A stretch of DNA of 64,000 nt. Source: Takakia lepidozioides (lineage: Eukaryota > Plantae > Bryophyta). The stretch is from contig CM060733.1 in NCBI GenBank assembly GCA_030704615.1, positions 34,596,001 to 34,660,000 of the forward strand. The letters run 5' to 3'. The notes beneath the pieces were generated by a model. That model did no database searches and was not told the DNA's origin. It saw nothing but the letters and a program-made list of their open reading frames with translations. Each line of letters begins with the position of its first letter. Position 1 is the stretch's first letter. Shown here one piece after another: positions 1 to 54,143 of the stretch. Made by a program: the position numbers and the translations under genes.

Positions 1-3000
1 ATTCTAATAGTGACACCTATTGCAGTTTAAGGGTCATATCCCAGTGGCTCAGGGCACTTGTACCTGCATCCACCGCAACAACTCCCATGGTTGGCTGGTC
101 ATCAACCCAGTCTCACCATAGAAAAAACACTGGTGGTCTTGCTGGTCATCACTCTTGCCTCACCACCGACAACATACTCTAGGATTGACCGGTGATCAAA
201 TCCGGCCTAATCCCTATGAAAGCAAGCGCCCACACAAAACCAACATGGCGCACAGTCAAGCATGCAGGTGTTGGGGGGGGGATCCAAACACAAGAAATCA
301 AAACATCAACACCCCCACACCAAAATCCATCTGCAATGCTGATCCTGCAGAATATCCCAGCCCAAAACCCCGGACTGACTGGCCTCCATCAAGAGAGGCT
401 TTGGCAACTACAAGTACAAAGTAATGAAAATAATAAAGAGATGGAGAGGAAGAATAGAAGCCCGACCAAGCAAGATCTAATCCTGATCTATGCTATCAAT
501 TGCCAGACTTCTCTCAAAGTGCCTCGCTCTGCATGATGGTAAGGTGTAGGCGGTATATCTATGTCCAGAAACCTGCCACTAACCCTGTCCCAAGCTACAG
601 TAGCTCGCTCTAACCAACCCTCCTCCTCTTTCTGCCAGGTAGAGACAAAGCAATACTCCCCTATCTCCCGCTCACTGAACACTAAAGAAAATAAAGGTAG
701 GGTGTGACAGTCTCTCAACTCGAAAGCTTTGAGACGGTTGCGGGTGTCCTCATTGCGAATGACTGCATCTCCTTCAAGCAAACTTGTCATTGCCAATGAA
801 CCCCCGCTCGTGGTTGCCTTGTGCAGAGCGTATCCGGCTGCAACCATGTCTGGCTGCATAAACTTGTGTAGCTCCTGCTCCTCTGCTCCAGTACACCACG
901 GCCTTGTGGCTGAACACCTTGGTCCCCGGGGCTGTCTTTGGCTGTGTTCCAAGCCTAGCTTTCACCCACTTTGGTATTTCACCTACAGCTGCAGAACTGC
1001 TGGCTCCAGCAGAGTTCTGATTGTCCAAAGCGATATTGAGGCCCTCAACGCCAACTACAACAGTTTGTTGTCTACTGCTAATGCCTGACTCCCAGTATGC
1101 AATCAACTTGTCCAACTGTTCTCCACTCAAATCAGTCTGAGTTCCTTGGGAAACATAAATCCTGTCCCCTTGTGTGCACAGGCTAAGAGAAGAGACCTGC
1201 CCTTCAATGACGTCCTCATTTCCCCCAGCCATACAAGGAGTACATCCCCAGATTTATCTCTCATGTAGACCAGAACAAGTTCTAGAAACAGAATTGTGGA
1301 TCTTTCATGGCACACTCACACTCTAAAAATTCCATAGATTTTTAGGAGAGTCCCAAAAACTAAAAGGTCTGGATAGGTAGATTTCCCCTTTCTGTAGGTC
1401 CCTGCGCAAGTTTTGGGTCAAACGGCCTTGGTAGGCCAAAGTTATGGCCAAACAGGCTCTATCTAATTTAAATTAGATCAAAGAACGACCCCCAACCTGT
1501 ATTAAATCACTATATGGCGTTCCCCTGTAATGGAGTCCCCCACAAAGGCCACAGTTTTTCCTCTCATTGACTCTAGGAAGGATCTGCCATCAAGCCGAGG
1601 CAGCTCACAATCATTTGGCTTCCATTTCCAGTGCAAATACCCACTGTCAGGCCGTCCATTCTTCATGCAGTTTTGATCCTCTCCAATTTACTGGCACGTT
1701 TCATTCGTGTACAGAGGGGGTTGGGGATCAGGCACCCAGGTCCCTATGGACAGGTCACATGCTCCTGTGCCAGCCAGAACAGTGACATTCGATCCCTTCG
1801 TCTCCAGAAATAAGCTTCCAACTTCCTTGGTGATGTAAGTCTCCTTGGTTGTTAAACCTTGAGCTGTGGTCACAAAGTTGATGGTACTGGACCCCTTCGT
1901 CTTCAGGGACAAGCTGGTGTTTTCCTTGATGTCGTCAGGTTCTGTGGTGCTTGGACCTTGAACTGCAACCGCCAAATCGGTGAGATTGGATACATTAGAA
2001 TATGGACACAAGCTGCCAGTTTCCTTCGTGTCATGACGGACAAATGGCCTCGTATGGAACACGAATGCACGGATCACTGCAACCGGAAGTAGGGCAGCAA
2101 GCACACACGCGTAAACCAAGCTTTTAAATCGGATTACACTTCGTGGCTCGAAAATGGGCTGGACCCGTTGTTGGGAAGAGAGGGTGCTGAAATCTTGCGA
2201 ATCGCCTGCCTCTCCTTGCTGGGTTTCGAACTGCAGCTCTACGAGGGGGCCATGGCACCCAGCCGATTACACCTGCCTTGTCTTTGTCAGAAAATGAGCA
2301 AGCCAAAGAATTCGCTCAAGGAGACCAAAAAGTCCAGCATTGTTGACAGTCCAGGCGTACTGACTCGACACCACACCTGAGCTGCAAATACAACGGACCA
2401 CACAAGTTGGGCACGACTGGCCTACTGGGTGCTCAGCCTGTCCCAGCGCTCAGGCAGCAGGGCTGCCAGGGCCCCCTGCGCGCACCCGCCACCACAAACA
2501 GGGATCACTACATCCTGATCACCACCAACGCCAATGTGTAAACAACAAGCGCATACCCATGGCAACAGCAGGGCCAGATGGACTCCTGCCCCAAGATATA
2601 TATTATAATAGTGCTAAAACAAACTCACCTCTGGCACTCACAGATGCAAGCATCATCTCTCTCGAGTGATAAGAAAGCTAAGGACACACTGTTCACACAA
2701 GAAACATGAAATCCATCAACATCACTCTTTAAGATAATAGTCGAGCCAGGGGCACCCCAAGCTATGGGGACTCCACCCCACAACAACCTATACCCCTACA
2801 TAAGCACACTCAGATTCTAAAGCATGAAGGAGCTCGGTCGCGCAGGCTCAACTCGAGAGAGATGAGCTGTGTGACTGACGCTCTCGTGAAGATAAGACGG
2901 TTCAGGTGTCAAACTAAACTTGACACCTGATTTAACACTTGACCTAAATCCAAGTGTTAAATACAAATAACTAGCTTTATTCTAGTTAGTTTCACACTGT

Positions 3001-3017
3001 GCTTATTTAACTTGACA
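1..3017 (-). mobile_element. 5' part (terminal repeat A', putative self-priming site, long leader) of a Ty3/Gypsy element related to the DNMT-carrying element at 27463-40183; inserted in Copia integrase and running off the window
   Basis: The minus strand starts TGTCAAGTTAAATAAGCACAGTGTGAAACTAACTAG at 3017, homologous to 27463 TGTCAAGTTATTTTACCACTAGTGTGAAACTAGCTAG. A' spans 2667-3017. Positions ~55-420 are the reverse-complement homolog of the pre-gag leader at ~31500-31820. The element interrupts the Copia ORF right after ISRDVVFDEG. Confidence 0.85.
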
Positions 3018-27160: not shown

Positions 27161-27462
27161 TCTCTTGATCCTCTTTCAGAAGCTGTGGTCATGGTTGAGG
27201 TGCCTGATTTTATCAACTGTGCCGCTGCAGCTGCTACCTTTAGTTGACCATCTACCCATGCAGCAGGTTTCTTGTAGCTATTGATCCACATGGAATCATA
27301 GGTAATCTGGAGCTTGAAGTTCGGCCATCTTGGATGAATCTGCACCCAGACTCTATCCCTGCTCCTTCAGCTATCCATGCCGCTACACAAAATCATGCAT
27401 ACATCATTGTCTTGCTGCTAGCACCTAACAATGACAGCCTAGATTTGTTCTAGGAAACACCC

Positions 27463-27789
27463 TGTCAAGTTATTTTACCACTAGTGTGAAACTAGCTAGG
27501 AAATAGCTAGCTTTTACATATTGACATTTGGGATTGGCCCAAGTGTCAATCCAGGGGTCAAGGCAGATTTAGGCCTTGGAGTGGTTATCTTCACGGCAAG
27601 CGCGGGAGGCTCATCTTTCTCGAGTTGAGCCTCACCGCGCCTAGCTATGGCGCCGTAGTGTGGATTCCCCATGGCGTGGGGTGCACTTGGCTTGACTTGT
27701 ATTTGAGTGATGAGGTTATATATGCATGAGTTTATGCTTCAGCTTTGTGAGCTCGCATGAGCTTGTGCTTGTATTCTTCTTCTTTATCA
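27463..27789 (+). repeat. Terminal repeat A1 (327 bp, TG...CA)
   Basis: Matches 39668-39994 with one substitution seen by eye (AGGCCTTGG vs AGGCCCTGG). Confidence 0.95.
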
Positions 27790-27805
27790 CTCGAGAAAGA
27801 TGAGC
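27789..27805 (+). promoter_or_regulatory. Putative self-priming primer-binding site (Tf1-like)
   Basis: ACTCGAGAAAGATGAGC at the end of A1 is the exact reverse complement of 27609-27625 inside A. No TGG-starting tRNA PBS is present. Confidence 0.7.
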
Positions 27806-29339
27806 TCGTATCTATGAGTGCTAGATACGAGTTAGTTGTAGCACTTGTGGTTTTTGCTTGAGAATGAGAGAAACCAAGTTGTTATGCAAGGAGCACCGTG
27901 GAGCTCTTGGTTGTTAGAAGCGGAGGCGATGTGGTTACGAGGTGGTAAACCTTGGCATTCGATCTTCAGCTTCAGAGATGAAAGCACCATACTGTAGGTA
28001 ATTCCAGAGCACCTTGATGGTTTCAGATTGTGTACATGCATGAGCAAGCACGATTGGGAAGAGGACCAGTCAAGAGCAGGTTATAGTGGCTTTGGTGGCA
28101 AAGCTGAGAACTGGACTTGGGAATGCGAGCTGTCATTGTGTGAAGGATTGCAAGACCAAGCGAAAGGGCTGATTTGGCTTGGGGCAAATCAGTGCACTTT
28201 GTGGAGTATGGTGAGATTGGGTTTCAATCTCGAGCTTCAGCATTGAGAGGGCTCTTGTCATGGCAAGAGCAGGGCTGGAACAGGAGCTAAGAGGTGCGGC
28301 AAGGCCATGGAATGTGCACCTAGGGTTTCAGAGCTTGGAAGAAGAGCTCTTGCACCACAAGAGAAGTGTCTTGTGGCTGGAAATGTAAGCCTTAGGGTTT
28401 CAGGAGCTTGGCAAAGGCTGTGGAGTGCTTAGTCTTGTCTTAGAGAGCATCAAGGAGCCAAGGAGCCAAGATAGGGGGCTGATATCTCTTGTGTGAAGAG
28501 GTTGCATGTGTGGAGCATGTATTCAGCTCATTGAAGCTTCCATCTTCAAGCTTGGAGGGCAAGCAAGGAAGAGGGAAGGGCTGACTTCCCTTATGAGGGC
28601 AAGTATGTGGAGCAGCTATCAGCCTGTGAAGGCTTGCACTTTAGGTGTGGGAGTGCAAGAAAGGAAGGAAGGGGCTGGTTTCCCTGTAGGGCATATTAGA
28701 GCATGCTTTCAGCTGCTGAAGCTGATTCTCTTATGGTGAGAGTGGGGCATGTGTGGAGCAAGGTTTGTGGGGTGCAAGAATTAAGCAAAGGAGCTTATTC
28801 TCTTATGGTGAGAGTGGGGCATGTGTGGGATCATGCCCTTCAGCCCATTGAGGCTCTTGTTTTCAAGCCTTAGAGAGCTAGAAGTGAAGGTCTAGGGCTG
28901 GTTTCCACTTGGAGTGAAAGAACAGCACTTGTAGGCCTTGTGAGTTGGTTTTCAAACTTCAAAGCTTGAAAGTGCGCCAACTCTTGAAGCAACAGGTGTA
29001 GAGGGCTGGAATAGGCTCTAGACAGATGTTATGGCCAATGAGGGGAGTGCTTGAATGAGTGCTCACAGGGCTGGGAACCACAGGGCTTTGGTTGTTTGCC
29101 ATGGAGTTTAGTGTCGTGTTTGGGGAGGCTAAGTGAGAAAGAAGGCTTGGGTTTGTGGCAACCACCTCATGGCTTAGGCTACATTGTGGTGGTGTGTGGA
29201 GCCGAAAGAGCAAGGATACCTTGCTGATTTCCTCACATCCACCATAAGCTCGGTGGAAGAAGCTAGAGTCCAAGGACACAAACCCTAGCTTGGCGTGGGC
29301 TAACCCCTTGGAGAAATGCTAAACTGCCAGAGCGGCCAT

Positions 29340-31260
29340 GTGTGGGGCTGTGACAGGCTGTGGCAAATCTTGACGGGCTGTGTCAAGCTGTGACAGGCTG
29401 TGATGGGCTGTGTCAGGCTTGACACAGGCTGTGCCCAGTGCCTTTGGGGCTGTGACGGGCTTGCGGGGCTGTGCCAAGGCTGTGCCCTGAGGCCTGTGGG
29501 GCTGTGACGGGCTGTGACAAGCTGTGCCCATGGCCTGTGGGCTGGTGACGGGCTGTGACAGCTGTGATGGGTGTGCTGTGGATGGGCTGTGACAAAAGCT
29601 GTGTCCCTGTGCCCTGTGGGGCTGTGACGGCTGTGACAGGCTTGCCTGAGGCCTTTGGGGCTGTGACGGGCCCTGTGTGGGTCTGTGACATGCGTGCCCT
29701 GTGCCCTGTGGGGCTTGACGGGCTGTTCGCTGTGGCGAGCTGGGACGGGCTGTCGGGTCTGTGACAGGCTGTGCCCTTGAGGCCTGTTGGGATGTGAAGG
29801 GCTGTGACAGGCTGTGCGAGCTTTGACGTGTTTCCCCTTGCCTTTGGGGCTGTGGCTGTGAAGGGCTGTGACAGGCTGTGGGCCATTGGCCTTGTGGGGC
29901 TGTGGAACGGGCTGTTAAAGGCTGTGATGGCTGTGATGGCTGTGTACAGGCTGTGTCCCTGTGCCCTGTGGGGCTGTGAACGGGTGTGTCAGGCTGTGAC
30001 AGGCTGGCCCAGTGGCCTTTGGGGCTGGACGGGGCTGTTACAGGCCGTGCCTGAGGCCTTTGGGTGTGACGGGCTGTAGGGCTTGTGACGGCTGTGCCCT
30101 GTGCCCTTGGGCGTGACGGGCTTGGTCAGGCTGTGGGAGCTGTGACGGGCTGTGAGGGGCTGTGACAGGCTGTGCCCAGGGCCTGTTGGGGCTGTTGACG
30201 GGCTGTACCGGCTGTGGCAAGCTTTGACCGGTTGGATGGGCTGTGAGGGGCTGTGACAGGGTGTGCCCTGTGCCCTGTGGGGCTGTGACGGGCTGTGTGG
30301 CTGTGACATTGCGTGCCCATGGCCTTTGGGGCTGTGACGGGCTGTGCGGGGCTGTGACAGGCTGTGCCCTGAGGCCTTGGGCTGTGACGGGCTGTGACAG
30401 GCTGTGCCCATGGCCTTTGGGGCTGTGACGGGCTTTGATGGGCTGTGACAGGCCGTGCCTGATGGCCTTTGAGGCTGTGACGGGCTGTGAGGGGCTGTGA
30501 CAGCCTGTGCCCATGGCCTTTGGGGCTGTGACGCTGGAGGTGTGCTGTGACAGGCCGTGCCTGGGGCCTTTGGGGCTGTGAGGGCTGTGAGGGCTGTGAC
30601 AGGCCGTGCCCATGGCCTTTGGGGCTGTGACGGGCTGTGAGGGGCTGTGACAGGCCGTGCCTGAGGCCTTTGGGGCTGTGAGGGGCTGTGAGGGGCTGTG
30701 ACAGGCCGTGCCCTAGGCCCTTTGAGGCGTGACGGGCTGTGATGGGCTGTGGCAGCTGTGACATGCCTGTGATGGCTGTGATGGGCTGTGACAGGCTGTG
30801 CCCTGTGCCCTGTGACAGGCTGTGAGGGGCTGTGACAGGCCGTGCCCATGGCCTTTGGGGCTGTGACGGGCTGTGAGGGGCTGTGACAGGCCGTGCCCAT
30901 GGCCTTTGGGGCTGTGAGGGGCTGTGAGGGGCTGTGACAGGCCGTGCCTGAGGCCTTTGGGGCTGTGACGGGCTGTGAGGGGCTGTGACAGGCCGTGCCC
31001 ATGGCCTTTGGGGCTGTGACGGGCTGTGACGGGCTGTGACAGGCCGTGCCTGAGGCCTTTGAGGCTGTGAGGGCTGTGAGGGGCTGTGACAGGCCGTGCC
31101 TGAGGCCTTTGAGGCTGTGACAGGCTGTGAGGGGCTGTGCACAGGCTGTGCCCAGTGGCCTGTGGGACTGTGACGGCTGTGACCAGTGAGCTGTGTGGGC
31201 CTGTGCTGGTCTGTGGTGGCCCGTGTTGACCTGTGGACGGCCTGTGCTGACTCGTGGAGG
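29340..31260. repeat. Minisatellite in the retroelement leader: 10-bp GGCTGTGACR subunits forming a 51-bp higher-order unit
   Basis: Unit GGCCTTTGGGGCTGTGACGGGCTGTGAGGGGCTGTGACAGGCCGTGCCCAT recurs at 30850, 30901, 30952 and onward. Most homogeneous at 30300-31130. Confidence 0.95.
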
Positions 31261-31919
31261 CACTGGTGGACTGCCTAAGGACTGGCATGTGGTCTGGAAG
31301 GCCGAATTTTGAAGCTCGTGGAGGGCGGTTTGAGGAGTATCTTCATGATATTCCCATGGTCATGCAAGTGAGGATAGAGAGGAGAGGCAGAGTGTTGGGA
31401 TGAGAGCATGCTGGGGTTAGGCATTGCTTTAGCTTCTCTTCCTCGTAGTTTCCACCCTCTCATTAGGCCAAGACCTTTCCGTAGGTGGAGGCAAGAGTCA
31501 GTCCGGGTTTGGGCTGGGGTGTCCTTGCAGGAGCAACACCGTGGAGTTGTTTTTGGTGTGGGGAGTTGTCGTTCTGATTTCTTGTGTTTGGATCCCCTCC
31601 ATACCTGCATGCTTGACTGTGCGCCATGCTAGTTTTGTGTGGGCGCTTGTTTTTATAGGTGATTGGTCCGGATTTGATCACCGGCCAGTCCTAGAGCATG
31701 CTGTCGATGGTGAGGCTGGGGTGATGACCAGCCAGACCATCATTGTTTCTCCTGTGGTGAGGTTGGAGGTGATGACCAGCCAACCATAGGAGTGCTTGCG
31801 GTGGATGCAGGTACAGGTGTAGGCTATGTTAGGAACTTAGTATTCCAAACCATAAGCCGCAACAGGTTCTCTACCCGGTTACCTTGTGGAGAGGGGGTTA
31901 GGGACATGTTCATGACCGG

Positions 31920-33190
31920 TTGAGTGTCAACACGGAGGTGCCACTAGTTGCTGGGGACAGTGCCGGTTCGAGCACTAGCGATACTAGTGGGTACACGAGA
32001 CGAGGTGTGCGGTTTAGGCCACCTTCACCTCCTGTGTCTTCCACGGAAGGTTCTGATTCGGATTGTGAATCAGGAGGGCTCATACCGGCGGTGCAAGTTG
32101 TTTCTTTGCCATTGTTGTGGGACACAATGGAGGAGATGTATGGAGCTACCAAGGGGCCACGAAGGTACTCTGGGGCGGTGGGCACCATTGAGTTGGATGA
32201 TTTTATCCAAGAGTTTGATAGTTGGTGTGATTTGCAGCAAATGCGCAATCCACAACTATTTACGCCGTTCATGGCATGGAAAGGGCTGTTTCAGCACCTT
32301 GAGGGGCCGCCTATGGATGATTACCATGAGTTCAGGCGGGGGCATGAGGTTGAGATCGAGGAGTGGAGGATGTACTGGTCACCCGACTATGTCTCCATCA
32401 CTAGGGGCACTAGAGCCACGAGGGCAGTGGCTACACCTGCCGCTGCACCGGCAGCTTCAGCAAGCAGCAGTGGGACTGGTGGTACAGTAGCTACGACGTC
32501 CACCCAAGCCACTACCGCACCAGCACTAGCACCCGTGCCTGCCTTCAACCCTGTTGTGGAGTTCTTCGAAGAGTTGAGAGGGAACTACCAAGGGGTGAGG
32601 ACAGAGAAGTTGCGGAGCTTGCAAGAGTTCCAACGGAAGCCGACCGAGAGCTTGAGGGAGGCTTTCACTCGCATGAGGCGCTTGATAAATGTAACCCAAG
32701 GGGTTACGGAAGCTCAGGCAGTCCAATTCTGGTATGGGATATTGGACAAGGAGCTGAGGAGAAGGGTGCGGGATGCAACTCTCCTACAAGCGGCCCAACC
32801 CACCTTAGCAAATGTGTTTTTGCTGGCAGAGCGGATAGAGCTCAACATGGTGGAGGAACGAGTGGTCATGGTGGGATTTGCTAAGGAGACACCACGGGGT
32901 AGTGGTGCTCCTAGCCAACCACTACCTCAACGTGCTCAAGGCAACAAGGGGGCTCAGGTGAAGCTCAGGGAAGGGCAGAGAGGACCTCAGATGCAGGGGT
33001 CTCTCCCTTCATTTGCTGGCCAACAACGGGCGGATGTGGTGTGCTGGACATGTGGAGGACCCCATGTCAAGAAGGATTGTCCAGAGGGAGGCAAAGGGCC
33101 GGCACATGCACAGCCTGCACAGTTACAGTGTGGGCATTGTGGCAACACGGGCATGGAGAGGCTCAGTGTTATGGTTTGCATCCTGAGTTG
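31920..33190 (+). CDS. Retrotransposon Gag with two zinc knuckles
   Basis: LDDFIQEFDSWC, FQRKPTESLREAFTRMRRL, CWTCGGPHVKKDC, and CGHCGNT/GHGEAQC completed across a 1-nt frameshift near 33150. Confidence 0.9.
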
Positions 33191-34790
33191 CGCCCAGGCC
33201 AGTTCCAAGGGAACAATGGTGGCCGGGGGCGAGGTGGAGCAGCCCAGAGGGGACGAGGTGGCCAGCCACGAGGTGCAGGCCAAGGGCAAGCTCAACGTGG
33301 CCAAGGACGCGGAGGTCAGGGTGTTGACCAAGGCATGGCCAACCGGCTTCAGCAGCTAGAGCAGAGGCTCGCTGCCATGGCTACAGCTCAGGTGGTACCG
33401 GCTCTAAGGCCGGATGGTCCACCTCCTGCTCCTGAGGGAGGAGATATGGGAGGCATGGGATTCATGTGTGGAGCAGCACTACCACTAGTGCAGGTGGAGT
33501 CTGCTGCAGCCGTGACTCGAGGAGCAGCACGAGTTCCTGAGCCACGAGGTGCAGAGGTGGAGTTGGATCCACAGCGTGGGGAGGCAAGCCGTCAGGCTAG
33601 GCTTCCTCAGTCATTCACATTGGCGGAGACAGTGTCGACGCCATCCATGGCACCTAGTTCTCGCCCGACTGTTACCGAGGCGGAGGTCACTATGCCATTG
33701 GGGAGAGCTACACGGGTAGCACCACTACCTAGTGTTGCCAAGGCTACGGCAGCTAGTGTGCTGCTAGGAGCGGCCACATCTGTGTGCCAGGCTCCATTGT
33801 TCTCGGCTACCATGATTGCGACGCCGGGGGTAAGACCAGCTGAGGTGTTCAGGCTGGCAGCTACACTCTGTGAGAGTGGGGAGGTTACTTCATCTTCTGC
33901 GGAGATAGTGGGAGGTGTAGTGCCGGAGGGATCCTCGGATTTGAGGGTCAAGACTGCCACGGCGGCGCCATGGCAAGCTGCAGCTGCCAGGTTGATGGAG
34001 CTGCCAGCTAGGCCAGCCATTGAGCGCGCCATGGTGACACCTGGAGTTGTCATGTTAGACAACCAGGATGGCATTTTCTGTTTGAGTGGACCGGCAGGCA
34101 AGAGGTACCGGCCACTGCGAGTCTTGTTGGACTCGGGAGCTCAGCCACTGATGCTGGGCAGAGCTGCTATTGCAGGCTTGGGCCTCACGGAGGCGGATAT
34201 GGAGCCTTGTCCTTTCCAGATACAGACGTCTCTGGGAGGATCGGAGCAGGCTCGGGGCATGACACGGCATGAGTTGGCTATCAGACTACGGCCGGATCAC
34301 CCTACAGATGGCTCAGTGATGCGAGCCAAGGCCATTGTGACAGACGCAGTCTCATACGATGTCCTGGTTGGTGGGGCAGTGTTGTACCCCATGGGCTTCA
34401 CCCTGGATTTTTGGGAGGAGTCAGCTTCCTATAGGCCTGCATGGCAGTCAGGGGAGGGCCGGCGTGTGCAGCTCCCTGTGACGTTCATAGGAGGAGTTGC
34501 GGTTGCCCAGCGAGGCAAGATGCCGACACTAGCAGCATTCACAGCGGCAGTGAGTTGGCCTAGAGAGTTGCTTGAGGGCAATGCTCATTCAGAGGATGTA
34601 CCACCTCCGGGAGAGCAGGATGACATGTATGGTATGGCGGAGTTGCCTACCATGGTTGCTCAGACTCCATTGTGGGGCACGAGCAAGGATTTGCAGCGGG
34701 ATGCTGATCGACGGGTGCAACAAGCCTGGGTGGAGGCTTTTGTACCGTCAGGAGAGGAGGAGAGTGTGGGATTGCACCAGGACCACCTCA
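33041..34790 (+). CDS. Gag-Pol linker and aspartic protease
   Basis: RVLLDSGAQPLML (Asp codon at 34130) and YDVLVGGAVLY, preceded by an RGG-rich segment. Confidence 0.85.
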
Positions 34791-34791
34791 A

Positions 34792-36090
34792 TTGTCTCCA
34801 TTGGACACCACACCTATTGTGTGGCAGTCTCCGGATGAAGGCATTTGTCTTCTGGACTTGTTTGGCGGGATCAGCACCGGATTGGCTGCTGTGTTACAGG
34901 CAGGTGTACGAGTTCGGCGTTACCTGTATGTGGAGAGGGATGAGACTGCACGACGCGTTTCACTTCGCCATGTTGCTCAGTTGGTGCAGCGGTACCCTGA
35001 GTTGTTGTCGGTGTCTGCAATTCGTGGATATCAGCAGGCCTTGCCAGCAGACATTTCGTTGCTGGGGGCGCAGGATTTGGAGCGGGTTGGCTCCATTGAT
35101 CTGGTAGTGGCAGGTTGGCCCTGCCAAGGGCATTCATCAGCCGGGCATGGCAATGGATTGCGAGACTCGAGGTCGGGTCTGTTTTGGGAGATGGTGCGGG
35201 TTTTGCGCCACTTGCAGCTTCATCAAGCTGTATCTCCAGCATACATCTTGGAGAATGTGCCACTGATGGGCGATTCTCGGGCCAGGGTGATGGCCAGTGT
35301 GCATCAAGTCCGGTCGTGGCTTGGGTCAGCAGTGTTGCTAGATGCAGCTACAGTGGGGTCACGGGCTCATCGTCCACGGCTATGGTGGACTAACATGATG
35401 CCACCCGCACTGCTCAAGCGTGCATTTGATGGGGTGCAGCGGCCAGCACATCTCACAGTGGATAACATTCTGGACACAGGGAGGCAGTCTCAACGTGTGA
35501 GACACGATGACCGTTCGCCTTTGGCAGTGGTCAACAAGGTGGGTCAACCACGAGCAGCATTACCTACACTGCTCAGCTTCCCAGGATCGCATGCTTTCCG
35601 GGATAGTGGACCTGGCCTCCTGTGGGATGCTCAGTTGCAGCAGTTAGTGGAGCCTAATGCTGACGAGCGTGAGCGGGCAATGGGTTTTACCACTGGTACC
35701 ACGGCGGTGTCGTCTCTTTCTGAGGCATCACGTCGTCAAGTGTTGGGGCAAGCAATGGATCTCAATTGCTTGACCTGGATTATCAGCTTGGCTCTAGCTG
35801 AGCAACGCAGAGTGCGGAATACACTTCCCTCAATGGTCTCTCTGCCTACCGAGACGGTACAGGCAGTGAGTGGGGGCGAGCATATGAGGACCACGGGGTG
35901 CATGCATCCATGGCACACGTGGGAGGTGCTCGAGGTTCAGAGGGAGTTGGCAGCCAAGGCGGCTGTGATGGATGAGGTTGGGGATTCTTCTCGAGTTGAG
36001 GAGGTCCTCAAGGATGAGATGATGGGGCAGGATGATGCCTTGTCATTGACTGAGCAGGTAGGGAGTACTGCTCAAGAGGTTGCAGCATAG
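34792..36090 (+). CDS. C5 cytosine DNA methyltransferase domain (DNMT3-like, non-permuted) embedded in pol
   Basis: Motif I LDLFGGI, II YVERD, III ADI, IV GWPCQG (Cys codon 35122), VI ENV, VIII AHRPRLWWTN, IX ERERAMGF, X RRQVLGQAMD, all in one uninterrupted frame. Confidence 0.95.
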   Translation: MSPLDTTPIVWQSPDEGICLLDLFGGISTGLAAVLQAGVRVRRYLYVERDETARRVSLRHVAQLVQRYPELLSVSAIRGYQQALPADISLLGAQDLERVGSIDLVVAGWPCQGHSSAGHGNGLRDSRSGLFWEMVRVLRHLQLHQAVSPAYILENVPLMGDSRARVMASVHQVRSWLGSAVLLDAATVGSRAHRPRLWWTNMMPPALLKRAFDGVQRPAHLTVDNILDTGRQSQRVRHDDRSPLAVVNKVGQPRAALPTLLSFPGSHAFRDSGPGLLWDAQLQQLVEPNADERERAMGFTTGTTAVSSLSEASRRQVLGQAMDLNCLTWIISLALAEQRRVRNTLPSMVSLPTETVQAVSGGEHMRTTGCMHPWHTWEVLEVQRELAAKAAVMDEVGDSSRVEEVLKDEMMGQDDALSLTEQVGSTAQEVAA

Positions 36091-37575
36091 CAACCACGGG
36101 ACGCGTCCTCTACCTCTAAGCCCACTGGACTTAAGGTTGCAGTTACGGAGGACAATTGGGAGCCTGACATTGGACCCATTGTCACCGGAGGAGAGAGACG
36201 ACGTATACGGCGGTTCCTGAGGGCTTACAGGAATTGCTTTGCCTTCAGTTTGAAGGACTTGGGAGCACTGAAGGGTCAAGAGATCCGTATTGAGTTGGCC
36301 ACTGACACGCCAATCTTTCGGAGACCCTATAGATACAGTGACATGGAGAGGTCTTTGATTCAGATGAGGACTCAAGATCTCTGGGAGGCAGGTTTGGTGG
36401 AGCTCTCTGGTGGAGAGTATGCTTCAGCCACAGTGATGCCAGCCAAGAAGGATGTCTATGGCAATTGGACGGAGAGACGTATGTGCGGTGATTACCGGCC
36501 TGTAAATCGTCAGACCAAGTCCGATAAGTATGCCATGCCAACACCAGAGGAGATCTTTGATGCCATCGGGCATGCTAAGGCCTTTAGCACTTTGGATTTA
36601 CGATCCGGATATCACCAGTTGCCAATCAAGGAGGCGGACAAGCAGAAGACGGCATTCTGGGGGATCAATGAGCACGGCAAGGATTGCCTATATCAGTGGC
36701 GGTTCTTACCATTTGGGCTTAAGAATGCTCCTGCAGAGTTTCAGAGAGTCATGGATAGGATTCTAGCAGGGGTGGACTTTGCTCGGTGCTACATAGATGA
36801 CATCATCATCTTTAGTGTTACGATGGAGGAGCATGAGAGACACCTTCAGGTGGTATTGGAGCGCTTGAGAGCGCACGGATTGAAGTTGCATCCGGGGAAG
36901 TGCAAGTTTTTCCACAACCAGATTGAGTATCTGGGTCACATGATATATCCTGGAGGATTGGGGGTACAGCAGACTAAGGTAGAGGCCATTGCACAAATTC
37001 CACGCCCCACGGATGTGAGCCGAGTTCGAGCTTTCATGGGGTTGGCAAACTATTATAGACGGTTTGTCAAGGGATTTAGTACCATTGCAAAGGCTCTAAC
37101 CAAGCTGACCAAGGTGGACCAGGAGTGGCAGTGGGAAGATGAGCAGGAACGAGCTTTTCAAGAGCTCAAGGCGAGGTTGACCTCGGCGCCTATCTTGAGA
37201 CGACCTATCAGGGGGCGTCCCTTTCAGCTGCATACGGATTGGAGCATGCTGGGGCTTGGAGCGGTGCTCACACAGGTGGATGATGAGGGAAGAGAGTTCG
37301 TAGTGGCTTACGCTAGCCGCTCGAACAACGCTGCAGAGGCTAAGTACAGCTCATATGAGGGAGAGTGCTTAGCTGCAGTGTGGGCCGTGGCACACTTCAG
37401 GTGCTATCTATACGGCAATCTTTTCACCCTTGTCACGGATCACCAGCCACTCAAGTGGTTGATGGAGTCAGACAAGCTTACGGGAAGCTTGCACGGTGGG
37501 CACTTATACTCCAGGAGTATGACTTTCAGGTTGTGCATCGACCGGGTTTGGTCAATCGGGATGCGGATGGATTGA
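36091..37575 (+). CDS. Reverse transcriptase and RNase H (Ty3/Gypsy), same frame as the DNMT after a single TAG
   Basis: RMCGDYRPVN, LDLRSGYHQ, PFGLKNAPAEFQ, YIDD (36790), FQLHTDWS, VAYASR, YSSYEGECLA, VTDHQPL. Confidence 0.96.
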   Translation, partial: QPRDASSTSKPTGLKVAVTEDNWEPDIGPIVTGGERRRIRRFLRAYRNCFAFSLKDLGALKGQEIRIELATDTPIFRRPYRYSDMERSLIQMRTQDLWEAGLVELSGGEYASATVMPAKKDVYGNWTERRMCGDYRPVNRQTKSDKYAMPTPEEIFDAIGHAKAFSTLDLRSGYHQLPIKEADKQKTAFWGINEHGKDCLYQWRFLPFGLKNAPAEFQRVMDRILAGVDFARCYIDDIIIFSVTMEEHERHLQVVLERLRAHGLKLHPGKCKFFHNQIEYLGHMIYPGGLGVQQTKVEAIAQIPRPTDVSRVRAFMGLANYYRRFVKGFSTIAKALTKLTKVDQEWQWEDEQERAFQELKARLTSAPILRRPIRGRPFQLHTDWSMLGLGAVLTQVDDEGREFVVAYASRSNNAAEAKYSSYEGECLAAVWAVAHFRCYLYGNLFTLVTDHQPLKWLMESDKLTGSLHGGHLYSRSMTFRLCIDRVWSIGMRMD

Positions 37576-39221
37576 GTCGCAATCCATGCATGAGCCAGCA
37601 GGATGACACTGGAGCTCGGTGGCATGGTGAGACGGACGAGGAGATGGTGCCGGGATGGCACGCATCTGCATTTTTGTGTATCTTGGCATCGGGAGGTCAG
37701 ATTGGACCTACAACAGGGATGACTGTAGACGGAGTGTCTGAGGACCCTGAGGCTAGTGATGAGCTAGGTGGTGCCAGAGATATACATGAGGATTCGGCTG
37801 TGTTGGACTACCTCCGCACGGGAGACACGGCAGCCATTGTGACTGCCAGGGAGAGGGATCGGATCCTGCAACGAGCCAAGAGGTTCAAGTGGGAGGGGAT
37901 ACACCTACTTCGAGTGTGGGAGGATGGTCGGGTGAGGATTGTGCCTCACCCCACACAGCGTGCACGGTTAGTGCGGCATGCCCATGAGGAGTTGGGGCAT
38001 TTTGGAGTGCGACGCACTCACAGTTTACTGCAGGGGCAGTATTGGTGGCGTGGTATGCATACAGAGGTGCAACAGTTTGTGGCTAGGTGCATGGTGTGTG
38101 ACAGGGTGCGTGCTTCATTCAACGCCCCTACACCACAGTTGCATCCTTTACCTATCATGGGATTGGGCTACAGGTGGAGTCTTGACTTCGCAGGACCGTT
38201 GCCACTGACTATGCGCCACCACAGATATGTGTTGGTGATGGTGGAGCACTTCTCCAAGTGGATTGAGTTGGTTCCATTGCCTGACAAGGCTAGTGAGGGG
38301 GCTGCGTATGCATTCTTGGATCGTGTGCTTAGCCGATTTGGTGCTCCAGCTGAGGTACTCACGGACCAAGGGAGAGAGTTCTTGGGGGAGTTTCAGGCTT
38401 TGTGTGATAAAGCCTTGATAGACCACCGCACCACTTCTCGGGATCATCCTGAGGCCGATGGCTTAGCAGAGAGAGTTGTTCAGACGGTGAAGAGGGGTTT
38501 GCGCAAGTATGGCTTGCAGAAGGGACACCTAGGAGATTGGGATCTTCAGGTTCCTTGGTTAGCCATGGGCTACAGGTTCAGCAAACAAGCATCACTTGCC
38601 TCCTTCTCACCATTTCCTTCTCTTTGGCCGAGAGCCGGATTTGCCTGCAGCCATTCGTAAGGACACTGCTCAAGTCCTTAACCTTGACGATCCGGACGTG
38701 TGGGTACGTGCATGTGATCAGCGTGCAGAGTTGTTCAAGAAAGTCATGCCCATGGCTTTTGAGAACCTTGCCATTGCACAGCACCGTGATACGTTGAGGT
38801 ATGCCACTATACGTGGTGGAGGATATCGTCCTGGGGTTCGGAGGTTTAGCCCTGGTGACTATGTTTATTTGCAGCAGACTGCTCCTACGACTCTGGATGT
38901 TACTGCAGGGCGTGTTATTCTGAGGGTTCGAGAGGTGTTGCCCTCAGGGGTCCTGATCTTAGAGGGTCGGGATGGCATGACTTGGAAAGACCATGTGCGT
39001 AATTGTGCGCCATGTCACCTTCCCAATGTCGATGGCAGAGTTGACCCAAACTTGGCAGTGGTACCTGCAGGTTTGAGGTGCATGCTCTGTGGGTCTGCCA
39101 AAGGGGCAGCCACCATGCTGGTGTTGATCGGTGCTCAAGGGGTTGGCATATGGGATGCTTGACACCACCTCTTGAGAAGGTGCCTGACGGAGATTGGTTG
39201 TGTCCACACTGCTTGGGATAG
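37480..39221 (+). CDS. Integrase (HHCC, DDE core, C-terminal domain) ending in a PHD finger; 1-nt frameshifts near 37480, 38610 and 39125
   Basis: HEELGHFG...CMVC, WSLDFAGP, LTDQGREF, GLAERVVQT. The C-terminus is CMLC...[C]DRCSRGWHMGCLTPPLEKVPDGDWLCPHC (C4HC3) at 39079-39212, stop at 39219. Confidence 0.92.
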
Positions 39222-39480
39222 TGGCAGTGGACATGACTGGAGGCAGCTAACAAGCCATGGGAGGCCAAGCTCATAGGAGTCAATACATAAGATCCAAGCT
39301 CAAGTTCACAGGTTGCAAGACGGCGACTAACGATGGGGCAACTCTTGCACCCGGCCTCTTGATCTATCGAGTTTGAGTGTAGTAGGGATAGTGGTGGAGG
39401 ACTTAGTGAGGCTATGGTCACTATCACATCTTGTGGCTACCTGGACTTAGAGGGACCTAAGCACCAGCTAGGGGGGCGAT

Positions 39481-40183
39481 TGTGTGGACTAGTGACTGCC
39501 ATAGTGGGCAGCGTAGTGGCAGCTAGTGACTGACTAGTGTAGCCTAGTGGTTGACTAGTGGCTGGACTAGTGGTAGACTAGTGGTATACTAGTGTGTGGT
39601 GTGCACATGTGTTGTGTGGTTTTGGACAGCGATGTAGTTGTGTAGCGATATGTATGCGCACGACAGCTGTCAAGTTATTTTACCACTAGTGTGAAACTAG
39701 CTAGGAAATAGCTAGCTTTTACATATTGACATTTGGGATTGGCCCAAGTGTCAATCCAGGGGTCAAGGCAGATTTAGGCCCTGGAGTGGTTATCTTCACG
39801 GCAAGCGCGGGAGGCTCATCTTTCTCGAGTTGAGCCTCACCGCGCCTAGCTATGGCGCCGTAGTGTGGATTCCCCATGGCGTGGGGTGCACTTGGCTTGA
39901 CTTGTATTTGAGTGATGAGGTTATATATGCATGAGTTTATGCTTCAGCTTTGTGAGCTCGCATGAGCTTGTGCTTGTATTCTTCTTCTTTATCATTGTGT
40001 GGACTAGTGACTGCCATAGTGGGCAGCGTAGTGGCAGCCTAGTGACTGACTAGTTGTAGCCTAGTGGTTGGACTAGTGGCTGGACTAGTGGTAGACTAGT
40101 GGTATACTAGTGTGTGGTGTGCACATGTGTTGTGTGGTTTTGGACAGCGATGTAGTTGTGTAGCGATATGTATGCGCACGACA
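39481..40183 (+). repeat. 3' repeat block: B1 (39481-39665), GC, A2 (39668-39994), T, B2 (39996-40183), preceded by a short PPT
   Basis: PPT-like AGGGGGGCGA at 39470-79. B1 and B2 differ only by three 1-nt indels. B is TG...CA and rich in ACTAGT motifs. Confidence 0.95.
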
Positions 40184-41449
40184 ACCCAACTCAACTTATC
40201 ACGATGGTCAATTGCATCTGCTACTCTCTGTAATCCAACAGACAGTCACCTTTTTGCCTCGATTGTCCCACCATTGACTAGGGTCAGAAAAATATTCATT
40301 CCACAGCTTCTCCTCGTCTCAACTGTTACCTGTTTCTGGATACTTCCCTGTTGTCACATTGGGCAGTACCATGTCAAAGTCACTCCAAACTATCAAAGTT
40401 TCACTCAACCAGCTAACTTGCAGAATTCAACATGAAAATTTAGGGCCAATTCTGATAAGAGGAAAAACAGGGTGAAAATGTGTTGAAGAAGGTGCCTTCA
40501 TGAGCAGTGCCTAATTTTATCAATTGTGCCGCTGCTGCTGCGGCTTCCAGTTGACCATCTACCCATGCAAGTTTCTTGCAGCTATCGATCCACAGGGAAT
40601 TATAGGTAATCGTGAGCTTGAAGTCCCGCCCTCTTGGATGAATCTGGACCGGCTAGACTCTACCCTTGCTCCCTCAGCTATCCAAGCTCTGCACAAATCA
40701 TGCATACATCTTTCCCTTGCTACTAGCGGCTGACAATGACAGCCTACAATTGTTCCAGCAAACACCCAACCCTACTTATCACCCATGCAGAATTCAACAT
40801 GCATCTCAGGGCCAAGTCTGATCATGAGAGGGCAAAACAGGCTAAAACGTGCCCTCACCACATTGTCCTTCACCCATGGAGAATTTGACCGACCATCAAC
40901 CCAAAATGACCTCTTGTGTGTGCTGTTTGTCTGTAGTCAGATAATGTCGGATTGGTCTGAGAACCACCACGGTGCAGTTGAGTAGGCAGAGATTGAAACA
41001 CGGCCTGCTAAGACCTGCAAGCTGACTCTCCCAAGAACCTTGTAAACATTAGGAAGAATACCAAATCATGGTACTCACAGGAGTCAAGAGCCCACCTTTG
41101 CAGGATGGACGAACTTCTTAACATCGTACATTAAGAAAAGCCACACCTGGTGATTGCGGTTGTCCCACCATCATGAAGGATCGGTATAAAACTCATGCAA
41201 CCTCACATGACGAACGAGCTAACTTCTACATGAAAATTTAGGGACTACTCTGGTAACAGGGAAAAACAGGGTGAAATGTATTGAAGAAGGTACCTTCATG
41301 CCGCACGCTCAGCCATCTTCACATTGCCATGGATTCTGCAGGCACCAAGCAAGGCCTTCATTTTGCAAACATGTCGACCTCTTTCCCCTTTTCCAGAGCT
41401 GGCAGGCAGTGTTCAGAATGACATTATGTACAATTCCAGCTTTGAACAA

Positions 41450-41975
41450 GGCACGGCCTGCTAAGACCAAGCTGACTCTCTCTTGCACCAACGAGCTATC
41501 TTACAGATTTCAATATCATATCAGGCCCGAGTCTGATAAGAGGGCAAAACAAGCTGAAATAGATTGAAGAAGAAGGTGCCCTCACGGCCTGCTAAGACCA
41601 AGTTGACTCTCTCTCTAGCACCAACGAGCTAACTTACAGAATTCAATATGCATATCAGGCTCGAGTTTGATAAGAGGGCAAAACAGGCTTAAATAGGTTG
41701 AAGAAGAAGGTGCCCTCACGGCCTGCTAAGACCAACCTGACTCTCTCTCTTGCACTGATGAGCTAAACTTAACATAATTCAATATGCATATCAGGCCTGA
41801 GTCTGATAAGAGGGCAAAACAGGCTTAAATAGGTTGAAAAGAAGGTGCCCTCACGGCCTGCTAAGACCAAGCTAACTCTCTCTCTCTTGCACCAACGAGC
41901 TAACTTACAGAATTCAATATGCATATCAGGCCCGAGTCTGATAAGAGGGCAAAACAGGCTGAAATAGGTTGAATC
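41450..41975. repeat. Four tandem ~133-bp repeats inside CACTA
   Basis: CACGGCCTGCTAAGACCAA recurs at ~41452, 41582, 41717 and 41852. Confidence 0.85.
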
Positions 41976-43789
41976 AGGAAATGAATCAGCGGGCTGCTAA
42001 GACCAAGCTGATTCTCCCAAGAACCTTGTAAACATCAGGAAGAAGACCGTACTAACAGAAGCCAAAAGCCCACATTTGCAGGATGGACAAACTTCTTCAC
42101 ATCCTACATTAAGGAAAAGCCACACCTTATTGCGATTGTCCCACCATCGGCAAGGATCGGTAAAAAACTCATGCAAGCTCTGAAATAGGTCGAAGAAGAA
42201 GGTGCCCTCACCACATTGTCCTCGACCTTGTGTCATGACCCATGGAGGATTTGACTCCCCATGAACCCAAACGGACCTCTTGTGTGTTGCTTGTGTCTGT
42301 AGTCTGGTAATGGCGGATTGGTCCATGAGAACCACCACGGTGCAGCTGAGCGAGCAGAGATTGAAACACGACCTTGAAACACAACCTGCTAAGACCAGCC
42401 TGACTTTCCCAAAAACCTTGTAAACATCAGGAAGAATATGAAATCATGGTACGTCTAATAGGAGCCAAGAACCCGCATTTGCAGGATGGACAGACTTCTT
42501 CACATCGTACATTGAGAAAAAGCCACACCTTGTGATCGCGATTGTCCCACCATCGTGCACGCCTTCATGCCCCGATTATAGGGCTTGAGTCCCTGTCTGC
42601 CCCCTATCCACCAGCTCTACTCGTCATCGTACATTGAGAAAAGCCACACCTTGCGATCGCGGTTGTCCCACCATCGTGCACACCTTCATGCCCCGATTCT
42701 AGGTCTTGAGTCCTTGTCTGCCCCTATCCCACCAGCTCCGCTCGTCGTCTCTCATGATCAGACTTGACATTATAAGAAAACAAATCGATACAAAGAAAAC
42801 AAACAAATGCCACAGTGGCAGGGAAAACAAAAAAAACGCTAAGTCCCCTCTAGTCATGACTGGATGGATGAATGTAGCGATACATGGATGGATTTTGGGT
42901 TTTCCATCAACACACAAACCACTAAGTTTTTCAAGTATCACCACAGAAGTAATACCAATCACTGGTGTGTATGTAATCACTCATGCGTAACCACTGACCG
43001 AGTGTTCCAGTTACTAAATGGTCTATAACCACTCACTCTACACCACTCTCAAAGTGGTACCAATCAATGGGGGTCTTTAACCACTCCAGATCTACGTATA
43101 TTGTCCCCATCCACGTGGAATAATATATTTTGAAATGATAAAAATCTAAAAAAAAAAGAATTATTACACGTGGAGTAGAAAGTGGTTTCAACCACTTCCC
43201 ATCACTGAGGTGTCTTTAACCACTCATAATTTATCACTGTACCCGTCCATGTCGGATATTATCATTATTAATATAAATATTTGACCAAATGTTGAATAAT
43301 AAATATAAAATTAAATATTACACATGGATTACTTAGTGGTTGAAACCACTTCCAACCACTCCATATGATGCCACCGTGGCATTTCATCGGAATTAACCAC
43401 TGGCCAGTGGTTACCATTACTTGGAGTGATTTATAGAGTGGTAAGGGGGCCAGTGGTTATTCCGCGTTTTTCTTCTAGTTTTGCCTCACAGGGGATTGAG
43501 TGGTAGCACCCCAAAAAAAATTCCGAATGAGAGCTATGATCTCATTCACCATCGTGGTACTTGGATCCCAGACCGCTACAGAAAACCAACAAGAGGCTAG
43601 AAGCACTTGGTTTGCCACCAGTGCTCCACCAACGATTGATAGCATAGATGAGCTCTAGTGGGCGAGAGATCTTTTCAACCTAAAGACTACACTCTTCATT
43701 CTGCTCCCCTGGGACAGATTTATGCCAATCTTGTGACCTAGCAGCGTATGAGATTCTCCCTCACGAAGCCATTGAAGACCAATGTCTTG

Positions 43790-46700
43790 TGTCGAACGGC
43801 TTTTACTCATCCATCCCTTCGCTATCCGAGGTGGAAACTCCAAGATAGAAGAGTTGGATATCTCTAAGCACTCAGCCCGCTCAGTACTATCAGTCATGAC
43901 CTGCAGCTAGTGAATCATGGTTGTGTTTCCCATTTGTATTCCTTCTTGCCTTCATGTTATCAATTTACCTTATCTGATACTGAAGCATTAGATTGCTTCA
44001 GTATCTACTTAGTTCCAGTTAATCATACATTCAAGTCACATCTTCACTCATGTCTCTCTACACAGTGTGATGGTATCGAATAAGTATCAGATTATGATTT
44101 ATCAGGTATCAGGCCAATGCCATGGTGACTCTAATCCGCCCTACAGTATCACTACAGCTCTGCATGTAATAAGCATCTACTGTTCATCTTTCCTCCTTCT
44201 CTGTGCTCTCGTTCTTGCTCTCCGCCTGATCTCCTCTTCCCATGATCCAGAAGCGCTCCCCGTGAAGTGATCCTCTTTCCGTTGCCGCTCTCCTTATCTG
44301 CCCGCAAGCTGTTCTAACCACCTAACTAACTAACTGTCATCCTGAAGTAACACGTTTCCCTCTGCAGATGTCGTTCCCTCACAGTCGTTCCCTGTCAATG
44401 ATAACTGTTCCCCATGTACTGTGACAGGCTGTGTCAAGCTGTGCCGAACTGTGACTGGCTGTGTAAGGCTGTGTCGGGCTGTGTCGGGTTGTGACTGGCT
44501 GTGTAAGGGTATCGGGCTGTGACTGGCTGTGCGAAGCTGTGTCGGGCTGTGTCGGGCTGTATACCCCCCTTAAAGCCTACTGTTGCCACCCCTAAGGCTC
44601 CTGTTGGTCTCAGTCTGCGCAAAAATTAAGGGTACCCCACAGAACCCGTAAAAGCGTCTAAGTCCCAAGTAGCCCTCTAACATTTATCCCTCCCTCTTTC
44701 AAAAAACCGTGTCCTCACAGTTTACTGTTTGGGATTAGCAAACCTTTGTGAGCGAGCACCCTTCTGACGGTGAGAGTCTCATAAAGGACTCCGTGTGCGA
44801 GCTCAAGTCCTGTCACTGGTTGACAGAGATGATTGAGCACTACCTGGAAATGTCTGACCCTCCTTTGGCTGATAACGAGGTAACCTCTCAGGCATAGGAG
44901 ATCCCCGTCGTTTCTTCTCTGCCATCTGAAGTGCATAGTCCCTCTGCCATGTCAAAAGAGTCCGCTGAAGAAAGAGTTGTATCAGAATCCTCGTCTCCCC
45001 TTAGGTGTTTTAATGGCCGAACTTTAAGTGGAATCCTGTGTGGCATACAATGTGGTCCGACCATATCTGGAAGTTTAAATTGTACAACTTGTTGTAAGCG
45101 CTGGCAAGCAAAATTAGTGAACGTCCTCAACCTTATCTGTATAGGTAAGAGGTGTGCCAATGACTTTGAACAGTGTAAGTATTTCCATGCCTCATGTCCC
45201 TTAAAGAAAATATCCTCAGGGCCGAATTTCTGTGTTGTTAAATTGTTCCAAGCCGAATGAAACCATGAACGAAGTTGGGAATCCTTCTGCATCATAACTT
45301 TTGCATCATATAGGTACATATGAGGCGGCTGAAGGTAAGACCCAATGATCCCCACTGGAATAACTCAGAAATCGGGATTGCATCCTCTGCTACTCAATGT
45401 GATAACGTGCCAGAAAACAAGCAGCATAGTATAATCCACAGCCCATGACAATACTTGATACCTCATTGGTCTTGGTATAAATGTACCCATGTACAATTTG
45501 GAAGGCAATTAATTCCTTCAACATGGACCTGCTTCAGACCAGTACCTCGCAAAGTGATGATCCTCAATGGGTCGATTGTTCGGAAGAACCTTAGTCCTAG
45601 TTGCCACTGGCAGCCAAATGCGCATGATCTGATCACGAAGTATGGTTTCGAAAATGCAATGGCAGTGACGACTCCTGCTGACCCTAATACTCAAATGAGT
45701 TTCTACTCTCTTTCGGGTGACTCAAAGAAAGAAGAAAAGGAAAACATCATGGATTACCAATTTCCATATCAGAAATGGTTGGGAGCTTGATGTTTGCAAG
45801 CATCGGGAGTCGTCCTGACATCTCATATGCAGTAAGTACAGTGGCAAAATACGCATCAAGACACATACCTGTGCACTGCAACGCTGTGAAACGGATCATG
45901 AAATACTTGAAGGGAACATCTCATTTTGTTCTGACCTACAATGGGAAGCAAGACACAAATCTGCTCATAGGATTTTGCGACACAGATTATGCTGGTGACA
46001 TAGATGAAAATCCAGATCGGATGTGTCATTATGTTGAACCAAGGAGCAATTGTTTGGAGCAGTCGGAAACAAGCGTGTACTGCTGGATCGACAACTGAAT
46101 CGGAGTACGTTGCGGCTCACATGGCTACGAGGGAGATTATTTGGTTACGGAGACTCATGGACTCCATTAGACATTCACAGAAGACACCCACCCCACTTCA
46201 CAGCGATAACCAGAGTTGCATCAGACTGGTTCACAATCCAGAGTACCATCGTCGAACAAAGCACATAGACGTTTAGTACCATGTCATTTGCGAGAACCAG
46301 ACGAAGGGAGAAATTGATATTCAGTATGTTCACACGAACGATCAGATTGCCGATATTTTCACGAAGGCTCTTGGTCAAACAAGTTCTTTCGTTTTCGCTC
46401 CATGCTTGGGTTGCATTCCCCAGCAAGTAATCTCTGTGCAAACGATCTTTGAAGCATGCATACAATGTCGGACTGAGTGGGAGTGTTGAAATCGAAGATC
46501 CAGTCCGTCATTGACATCTGGACCATGTTGGTCGAATAGTCATAGTCAGCAACTAGGTGGCAGTCCACCGAGCAGTCACAATCACAGATGCCAGTCAGTC
46601 ACATTTTGAATCTCTAGCCAGTTGGATCTCCCGCACTTAGTAGTACTTGTATTTTTTGGTGGCAGACGATACTTAGTTAGTTTTTATGTATGTTCTTGGG

Positions 46701-54112: not shown

Positions 54113-54143
<31 letters not shown>

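Follow-up and report, generated by a model that had tools for sequence, protein, structure and literature searches.

How does a Ty3/Gypsy element with a DDE integrase come to be bounded by split terminal repeats? The window analysed here, a stretch of 64,000 nucleotides from the bryophyte Takakia lepidozioides, contains such an element of 12.7 kb (27463-40183), whose order, with its target-site duplication (TSD), reads ACCC/A...PPT-B-GC-A-B/ACCC. The original prediction held that this layout is typical of tyrosine-recombinase elements and not of Gypsy elements with a DDE integrase. We found that the layout is not confined to the former, as the Gypsy element KnitGypsy-Dnmt3 also has it according to a figure legend (PMC5890265, Fig. 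4c legend).

Layout of the element and its target site

Self-comparison of the window gave coordinates for A1, A2, B1 and B2 (Table 1) that bear out the predicted A...B-A-B arrangement. The predicted lengths of 327 bp for A and 514 bp for B-GC-A did not stand; the correct values are 326 bp and 515 bp, because the primer-binding site (PBS) already begins with the A at 27789. A1 and A2 differ by 1 substitution, while B1 and B2 differ by 0 substitutions and three one-base gaps. This near-identity therefore indicates a young insertion.

As predicted, ACCC flanks A1 and B2. The element is surrounded by a host repeat, and an adjacent copy of this repeat contains ACCC once and aligns without gaps to both flanks if the 4-mer is counted once, which makes the duplication 4 bp long. 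The alternative of 5 bp with a mismatch was rejected, as the empty-site alignment favours 4. The GC spacer (39666-67) is missing from both element ends, such that the element ends in the left part of the junction and starts with the right part. Among host short-read contigs, none ran from B1 into the flank of exactly this insertion. B2 is unlikely to be an assembly duplication because B-A-B recurs at 22 sites in other assemblies.

Table 1. Positions of the element's features and of a second family member in the window.
Feature	Position	Strand	Remarks
Second, diverged family member	55..3017	-	A (3017 to about 2668), self-priming PBS, internal region; 3′ end outside window
Left target-site duplication ACCC	27459..27462	+	
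A1	27463..27788	+	326 bp; sole 5′ terminal repeat; begins TGTC, the right palindrome half
Predicted self-primer (predicted RNA 5′ end)	27609..27625	+	17-nt perfect complement of PBS
Self-priming primer-binding site	27789..27805	+	directly 3′ of A1
Internal 10/51-bp satellite	29345..31183	+	5′ non-coding region
gag frame	31902..33359	+	weak Retrotrans_gag match (E 0.002), under curated cut-off; CCHC knuckles by eye
Aspartic-protease motif frame	32915..35107	+	LLDSGA by eye; without Pfam match
C5 cytosine methyltransferase	34708..36090	+	DNMT3-like, PCQ motif; PF00145, E 6e-13
Reverse transcriptase and RNase H	36091..37575	+	
DDE integrase (H2C2 + rve) and C-terminal region	37359..39162	+	two frames
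PHD finger	39069..39221	+	second half, other frame; PF00628, E 1.5e-6
Polypurine tract	39470..39478	+	directly 5′ of B1
B1	39479..39665	+	187 bp; ends CACGACA
att-like junction CACGACA-GC-TGTCA	39659..39672	.	contains palindrome GACAGCTGTC (39662-71); putative integrase cut site
A2	39668..39993	+	326 bp
A2/B2 joint	39993..39994	+	PBS-defined end to PPT-defined end, no extra base; variable in relatives
B2	39994..40183	+	190 bp; right terminus GACA
Right target-site duplication ACCC	40184..40187	+	

Coding content

Six overlapping frames, which were read one by one, encode gag, a protease motif, a C5 methyltransferase, reverse transcriptase with RNase H, an H2C2-DDE integrase and a PHD finger; breaks in the frames are either real or sequencing errors. 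The domain order gag-PR-RT-RH-INT with a DDE integrase is that of Ty3/Gypsy elements, with the protease identified by motif. The DDE residues are present in the integrase alignment and the structure match; the best solved-structure match of the integrase was Ty3 Gag-Pol (E 2e-18), and foamy virus was also among the closest. Its named relatives come from Riccia, Calypogeia, Marchantia, Klebsormidium, Closterium and Volvox, and none was found in a scan of viral contigs. A chromodomain match was absent at the integrase C-terminus, where there is a PHD finger instead. We found no Pfam match to a tyrosine recombinase in the 6 main frames or in 43 others, namely the PHD piece and 42 frames of 70 aa or longer that do not lie wholly within the satellite.

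The best solved-structure match of the methyltransferase was DNMT3A (E 2e-11). Its relatives in Marchantia matched at up to 74% across nearly the full length, and named relatives among the matches listed were from liverworts and Sphagnum. The methyltransferase lies between protease and RT in the window element, whereas in L072 and in proteins P0154 and P0158 it lies between RNase H and integrase. Given this difference in position, the domain has either moved or been gained twice.

The 10-bp unit of the internal satellite resembles the att half-sites; one match with 2 mismatches was found at 29556, which is within chance. Similar 10-bp units at 44419-44560 and 48487-48563 lie in an 895-bp direct-repeat pair (43790-44683 and 47850-48686, 90%), which is likely to represent the LTRs of another element.

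Primer-binding site, polypurine tract and the predicted cDNA

As in Ty3/Gypsy elements, a PBS follows the 5′ repeat and a polypurine tract (PPT) precedes the 3′ repeat. No tRNA gene was found in the 64-kb window, and the PBS is complementary to the element's own A. The predicted self-primer and PBS pair in the predicted RNA fold, and the 16/16 pairing in the window was reached by 0 of 300 shuffles. When the self-primer was tested at 10 sites, five with four different primer sequences beat the shuffles (at most 1/300 as good), and the other five, which are older copies, did not. Pairing between self-primer and PBS is kept with different letters in the second family member, L007 and L025. A hairpin with a 9-10 bp stem lies directly 3′ of the PBS (27806-27832), and a diverged version of it is present in the second member.

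Self-priming by a PBS complementary to the element's own LTR, rather than to a tRNA, has been described for Tf1/sushi and plant Tcn1 elements in the available part of PMC6317226. Unlike the window element with its PHD finger, DNMT and split LTR, those elements are bounded by ordinary TG...CA LTR pairs and in most cases carry a chromodomain (PMC6317226, same part).

A G-run directly before B1 was also found in related B-A-B loci. Because the PPT adjoins B1 and the PBS adjoins A1, standard LTR replication would produce a cDNA with a 515-bp LTR of B-GC-A at both ends. That the reverse-transcribed LTR is B-GC-A had been proposed from the start, and is supported by B starting at the PPT and A ending at the self-priming PBS. 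Across families, the natural cDNA ends are not conserved and are not TG/CA, unlike the internal palindrome, which is conserved.

The internal palindrome marks the element termini

The 14-base B1/A2 junction has a single exact match in the window. In 24 of the 26 B1/A2 junctions examined, C>T or G>A changes are the only departures from the window's sequence, four being exact, and the spacer always has 2 bases; one of the other two has a deletion and one is a copy with other changes. The junction is shared by families whose repeats are unrelated in sequence and which fall into several integrase subclades in our tree, a quick version with many open forks and without a distant outgroup.

The claim that the palindrome halves (GACA and TGTC) are the element's termini held in the window, in its relatives and in host contigs. 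For the last, contigs of public DNA runs were placed on a 76-base stretch that includes the palindrome. Run X2, which may come from the sample that underlies the window, has 35 contigs that depart from the element after 39665, 11 that do so after 39666 and 17 that join it at 39668, and their flanks agree poorly (0.36-0.42). The corresponding numbers in run X6, which belongs to a different study, are 2 and 1, and both runs have contigs bridging the B/A junction. Since contigs go into varied flanks at both termini, many host copies end and begin at the palindrome-half bases.

As had been stated, the first bases of the second family member (minus strand, from 3017) are exactly TGTCAAG; this copy lies within a Copia integrase frame. 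Where the first member has its satellite, the second has a frame (1691-2266, minus strand) ending in a match to the PMR5 N-terminal domain (E 2e-5), which is likely to be a captured host gene fragment. Similarity between the two members stops at about 55; window bases 1-54 are unrelated and resemble what we take to be a phage-promoter adapter, such that the window start may be a read or vector end. Elsewhere in the window we observed a 215-bp inverted pair (5491-5705 and 46484-46695, 97% identical), likely LTR pieces of two Copia copies, and tandem arrays of 134 bp (41452-42016) and about 90 bp (53859-54405).

Survey of related loci

Related loci were retrieved by integrase alignment from short-read metagenome contigs, and we took the best 80 of 462 confirmed stretches. 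Pol was followed by PPT-B-A-B in 28 of the 80 loci, corresponding to 22 sites by flank; B2 was interrupted at one of these sites and ran to the contig end at another. A single B, with PPT-B followed by flank, was found in 18 loci (14 sites). A further 7/80 were partial or ambiguous, and 27/80 were without B owing to a contig end, an interrupting insertion or a distant alga. The algal loci L062, L063 and L072 had no B-A-B or att match. The B-A-B loci comprise three families with unrelated repeats, plus the window's own.

Of the distinct 5′ ends that were visible, nine in number, family 1 loci contributed seven and the window two. All nine read from flank into the TGTCA start of a lone A and then into the PBS. 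Paired complete direct LTRs (TG...CA) at both ends, as in canonical Ty3/Gypsy elements, were absent, B being found on 0/9 of these ends; likewise, none of the nine fitted an element bounded on both sides by conventional B-GC-A LTRs and 5-bp TSDs, which would have spoken against the original prediction. A 4-bp TSD flanked 7/7 complete elements, five exact and two with one mismatch. Three of these elements were A..B-A-B, all with exact TSDs, and four were A..B, two with exact and two with one-mismatch TSDs. Thus both the 4-bp TSDs and the A..B forms that had been expected were found among complete elements.

L001 and L002 are 99.4% identical up to B and differ after B, and L002 is probably a chimera with L001 in which the assembly switched inside B; without it, single-B sites number 13. 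Because this pair shows that short-read contigs switch copies inside B, some single-B forms may be assembly artefacts. Three A..B-type 3′ ends recur in two contigs whose pol ends are not among the near-identical pairs listed. L025 (B-att-A-PBS) was considered as a 1-LTR circle and rejected; it is most likely a collapsed assembly and was left out of the count. Weak direct repeats in L013, L052, L053 and L079 were dropped as flank repeats. Two further remnants were observed: a decayed A-B without internal sequence at L027:556-959, which may be a solo form, and, in the flank of L079 (13780-14218), another B-A-B end of family 2, likewise decayed.

The A2/B2 joint is variable

The A2/B2 joint had been read as CA-T-TG. 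Instead, the join is a precise C/A with no inserted base, and CA-T-TG is not conserved in relatives; its candidacy as a second att was rejected. The prediction that A2/B2 joints vary was confirmed in families 1 and 3. In family 1 the joint is precise in 7/9 and alike apart from C>T/G>A changes, the exceptions being L001, with a single additional base from the PPT edge, and L012, where 19 nt are inserted whose last two are the PPT-edge CG. The nine sites of family 3 have five joint states (0, +T, +A, +AT, +AT and +ATC), which differ between the tree neighbours L065/L076 and L061/L067 in the quick tree. Because joint states vary, even between tree neighbours, these data suggest that the joint is made anew in each cycle. 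Slippage in the AT-rich sequence at the family 3 joint may contribute to the variability, and the seven precise joints in family 1 are equally expected of an inherited joint.

A model for integration through the internal palindrome

The model that we consider probable from these sequences is that the clade inserts as A...B-A-B with 4-bp TSDs, with integrase cutting the conserved LTR-internal palindrome and the predicted cDNA ends being joined together. Covarying pairing suggests that the RNA would start in A1 near 27609 and prime itself on the PBS after A1, with plus-strand synthesis from the PPT. Standard LTR replication would yield a cDNA of the form B-GC-A...B-GC-A, with natural ends lacking conserved TG/CA. 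Judging from the termini, integrase would nick after CA on both strands of GACA^GCTGTC, leaving two recessed CA-3′OH ends whose 5′ strands overhang by 2 nt, as in retroviral ends after processing. These recessed ends would be inserted 4 bp apart with loss of GC. The variable joints suggest that the A end and the B start would be end-joined anew in each cycle, either before integration, as a 2-LTR circle, or after it; a circle-first route and a route in which insertion precedes sealing would give the same sequence. A...B copies would arise from one-LTR circles, from cutting of both sites or from later recombination between B1 and B2, and would be dead ends. Retroviral integrases can cleave a palindromic 2-LTR junction, according to the available parts of PMC1905944 and PMC1180852.

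The weak point of the model is that the 5′-LTR site would seemingly be chosen over an identical 3′-LTR site, for which the model gives no reason. Unbiased cutting of a 2-LTR circle predicts that A-B-A..B is as frequent as A..B-A-B. This mirror form, which had been suggested as possible, was seen at 0/9 visible 5′ ends, a small sample from short-read contigs. Known A..B-A-B elements account for 4/9 of the 5′ ends (rough P=0.06 against unbiased cutting), and the single-B elements with a visible 5′ end were all A..B (4/4). At most nine mirror forms are possible against 22 B-A-B sites (P=0.015, a rough value that ignores assembly bias). Therefore, a model in which either LTR can be cut is oversimplified; the 5′ site is favoured, or else mirror copies are lost through decay or collapse to A..B. 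It is a long shot that the element's DNMT marks the CG of CACGACA in the first-made duplex, so that LTRs methylated on opposite strands determine the cut site.

Alternatively, reverse transcriptase itself could make the A/B joint, the plus strand continuing onto the other cDNA end and recopying B; integrase would still use the palindrome, and host end-joining would be unneeded. Reverse transcriptases have a clamp activity, and joints that are precise or carry 0-3 extra or PPT-edge bases fit non-templated addition with jumping. A jump of one strand is also a possible source of the asymmetry. However, two equal palindromes remain, so A-B-A..B is not excluded by a one-strand jump alone, and the 19-nt insert of L012 looks like repair filler. 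We regard this explanation as unlikely.

We give somewhat less credence still to replication of the PAT/Ngaro kind, in which B1-A2-B2 would be present in the RNA, the A2/B2 joint would pass to the progeny, and a circle re-formed from a template at B/A would be integrated by the DDE integrase or by a recombinase acting in trans. The repeat layout is identical as far as PMC7192593 and PMC5890265 describe it in their available parts, the likeness of 7/9 family 1 joints apart from C>T/G>A is as expected, and such replication would account for one arrangement being passed on. Conversely, an intact PPT and a self-priming PBS lie exactly at the B start and the A end, joints differ between tree neighbours, random 4-bp TSDs and loss of the GC spacer fit a staggered cut by a DDE enzyme, and no recombinase frame was found among the 6 main and 43 further frames.

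A local accident, whether through duplication of B during assembly or through nesting or recombination of a conventional LTR element, could draw on the long-read-type indels in the window (three one-base B1/B2 gaps and the pol frameshifts) and on the one short-read chimera among related loci, but is largely refuted and very improbable given 22 independent B-A-B sites in three unrelated repeat families with matching TSDs, no conventional 5′ LTR at any of nine ends, identical termini in host reads from two studies, and the layout already published for Klebsormidium (PMC5890265, in its figure legend).

We therefore retain cleavage at the internal palindrome with joining of the cDNA ends as the preferred model. 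On a broader version of it our judgement is evenly balanced: an old green-plant Ty3 clade (charophyte algae, liverworts and peat mosses) would have moved att from the cDNA ends into an LTR palindrome, its obligate route would be an end-joined 2-LTR circle opened by integrase at the 5′-LTR palindrome, and it would thereby converge on PAT/Ngaro architecture with DDE chemistry.

Comparison with known systems

In insertion sequences of the IS3/IS30/IS21 type, two inverted ends lie 2-3 bp apart in a junction that a DDE enzyme opens; these DNA transposons build the circle junction by strand transfer in each cycle. The window element is alike in the proposed DDE opening of abutted ends, whereas its junction would be copied by reverse transcription.

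The element closest in description is KnitGypsy-Dnmt3 of Klebsormidium nitens (de Mendoza et al. 2018), for which a figure legend gives DIRS-type repeats, A-coding-B-A-B, together with Gypsy domains (PMC5890265). It shares with the window element the Gypsy domain set, a Dnmt3-like domain in Pol and the repeat order (PMC5890265, available part), and the split layout is therefore not new. Unlike it, the window element is in a land plant and not an alga, and its integrase similarities would point to a liverwort as the likely host. Three K. nitens integrase proteins are 49-59% identical to the window integrase and two of them have a PHD finger, with no direct tie to the K. nitens DNMT copies; they lie near the base of the group in the quick tree, which has no distant outgroup. 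K. nitens was not named among all 55 DNMT matches of one listing or the best 120 of 196 of another. Most likely, the window element belongs to the KnitGypsy-Dnmt3 group.

The available description of KnitGypsy-Dnmt3 contains no account of termini, TSD, att palindrome, self-priming, A..B forms or mechanism (PMC5890265). The name KnitGypsy appears in no second paper of the literature searched, and no paper there deals with the termini of split-repeat Gypsy elements or with their mechanism. That literature did not extend to most subscription papers, to Repbase or theses, or to the supplementary figures of PMC5890265, which may contain further accounts. Within it, a conserved internal att, self-priming, a 4-bp TSD, a variable joint and the A..B form were not found for split-repeat Gypsy elements. 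A 2026 preprint already names streptophyte Gypsy-DNMT3. Gypsy-7a_cRei has a PHD finger and 'LTR subparts', and the available part of its description does not include an A...B-A-B layout.

PAT, TOC1 and Ngaro share with the window element the A...B-A-B repeats and a B/A junction that equals the joined termini. Unlike them, it has a DDE integrase rather than a tyrosine recombinase, a Ty3-type Pol, a PPT, a 4-bp TSD and a 2-nt spacer that is lost (both comparisons from the available part of PMC7192593). As proposed here for the window element, the DDE integrases of foamy virus and HIV-1 cut an internal palindrome of two att half-sites to produce processed ends. Their palindrome forms by joining of natural ends (PMC1180852 and PMC1905944, available parts). 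In the window element it is instead encoded within the LTR, and the natural cDNA ends are without att; internal cleavage would thus be the normal route.

Implications

The general view is that retroviruses and LTR elements insert a linear cDNA by its natural ends and that circles arise as by-products. Cleavage of circle junctions by the integrases of foamy virus and HIV-1 has been reported as an added activity (PMC1180852 and PMC1905944, in the parts available). The present clade seems unable to use its natural cDNA ends, and would therefore be a genetic system in which internal cleavage and end-joining are required. The split layout is real and clade-wide, and the mechanistic route is proposed. 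Such a family is likely to be missed or mis-bounded by LTR finders that demand paired TG...CA LTRs (a method of this kind is given in the available part of PMC6317226). It extends DNMT-carrying retrotransposons to bryophytes, beyond the alga of their first description. Its proteins have close relatives in the model plant Marchantia. The family would offer a natural test case for joined or circular copies as the integrating form.
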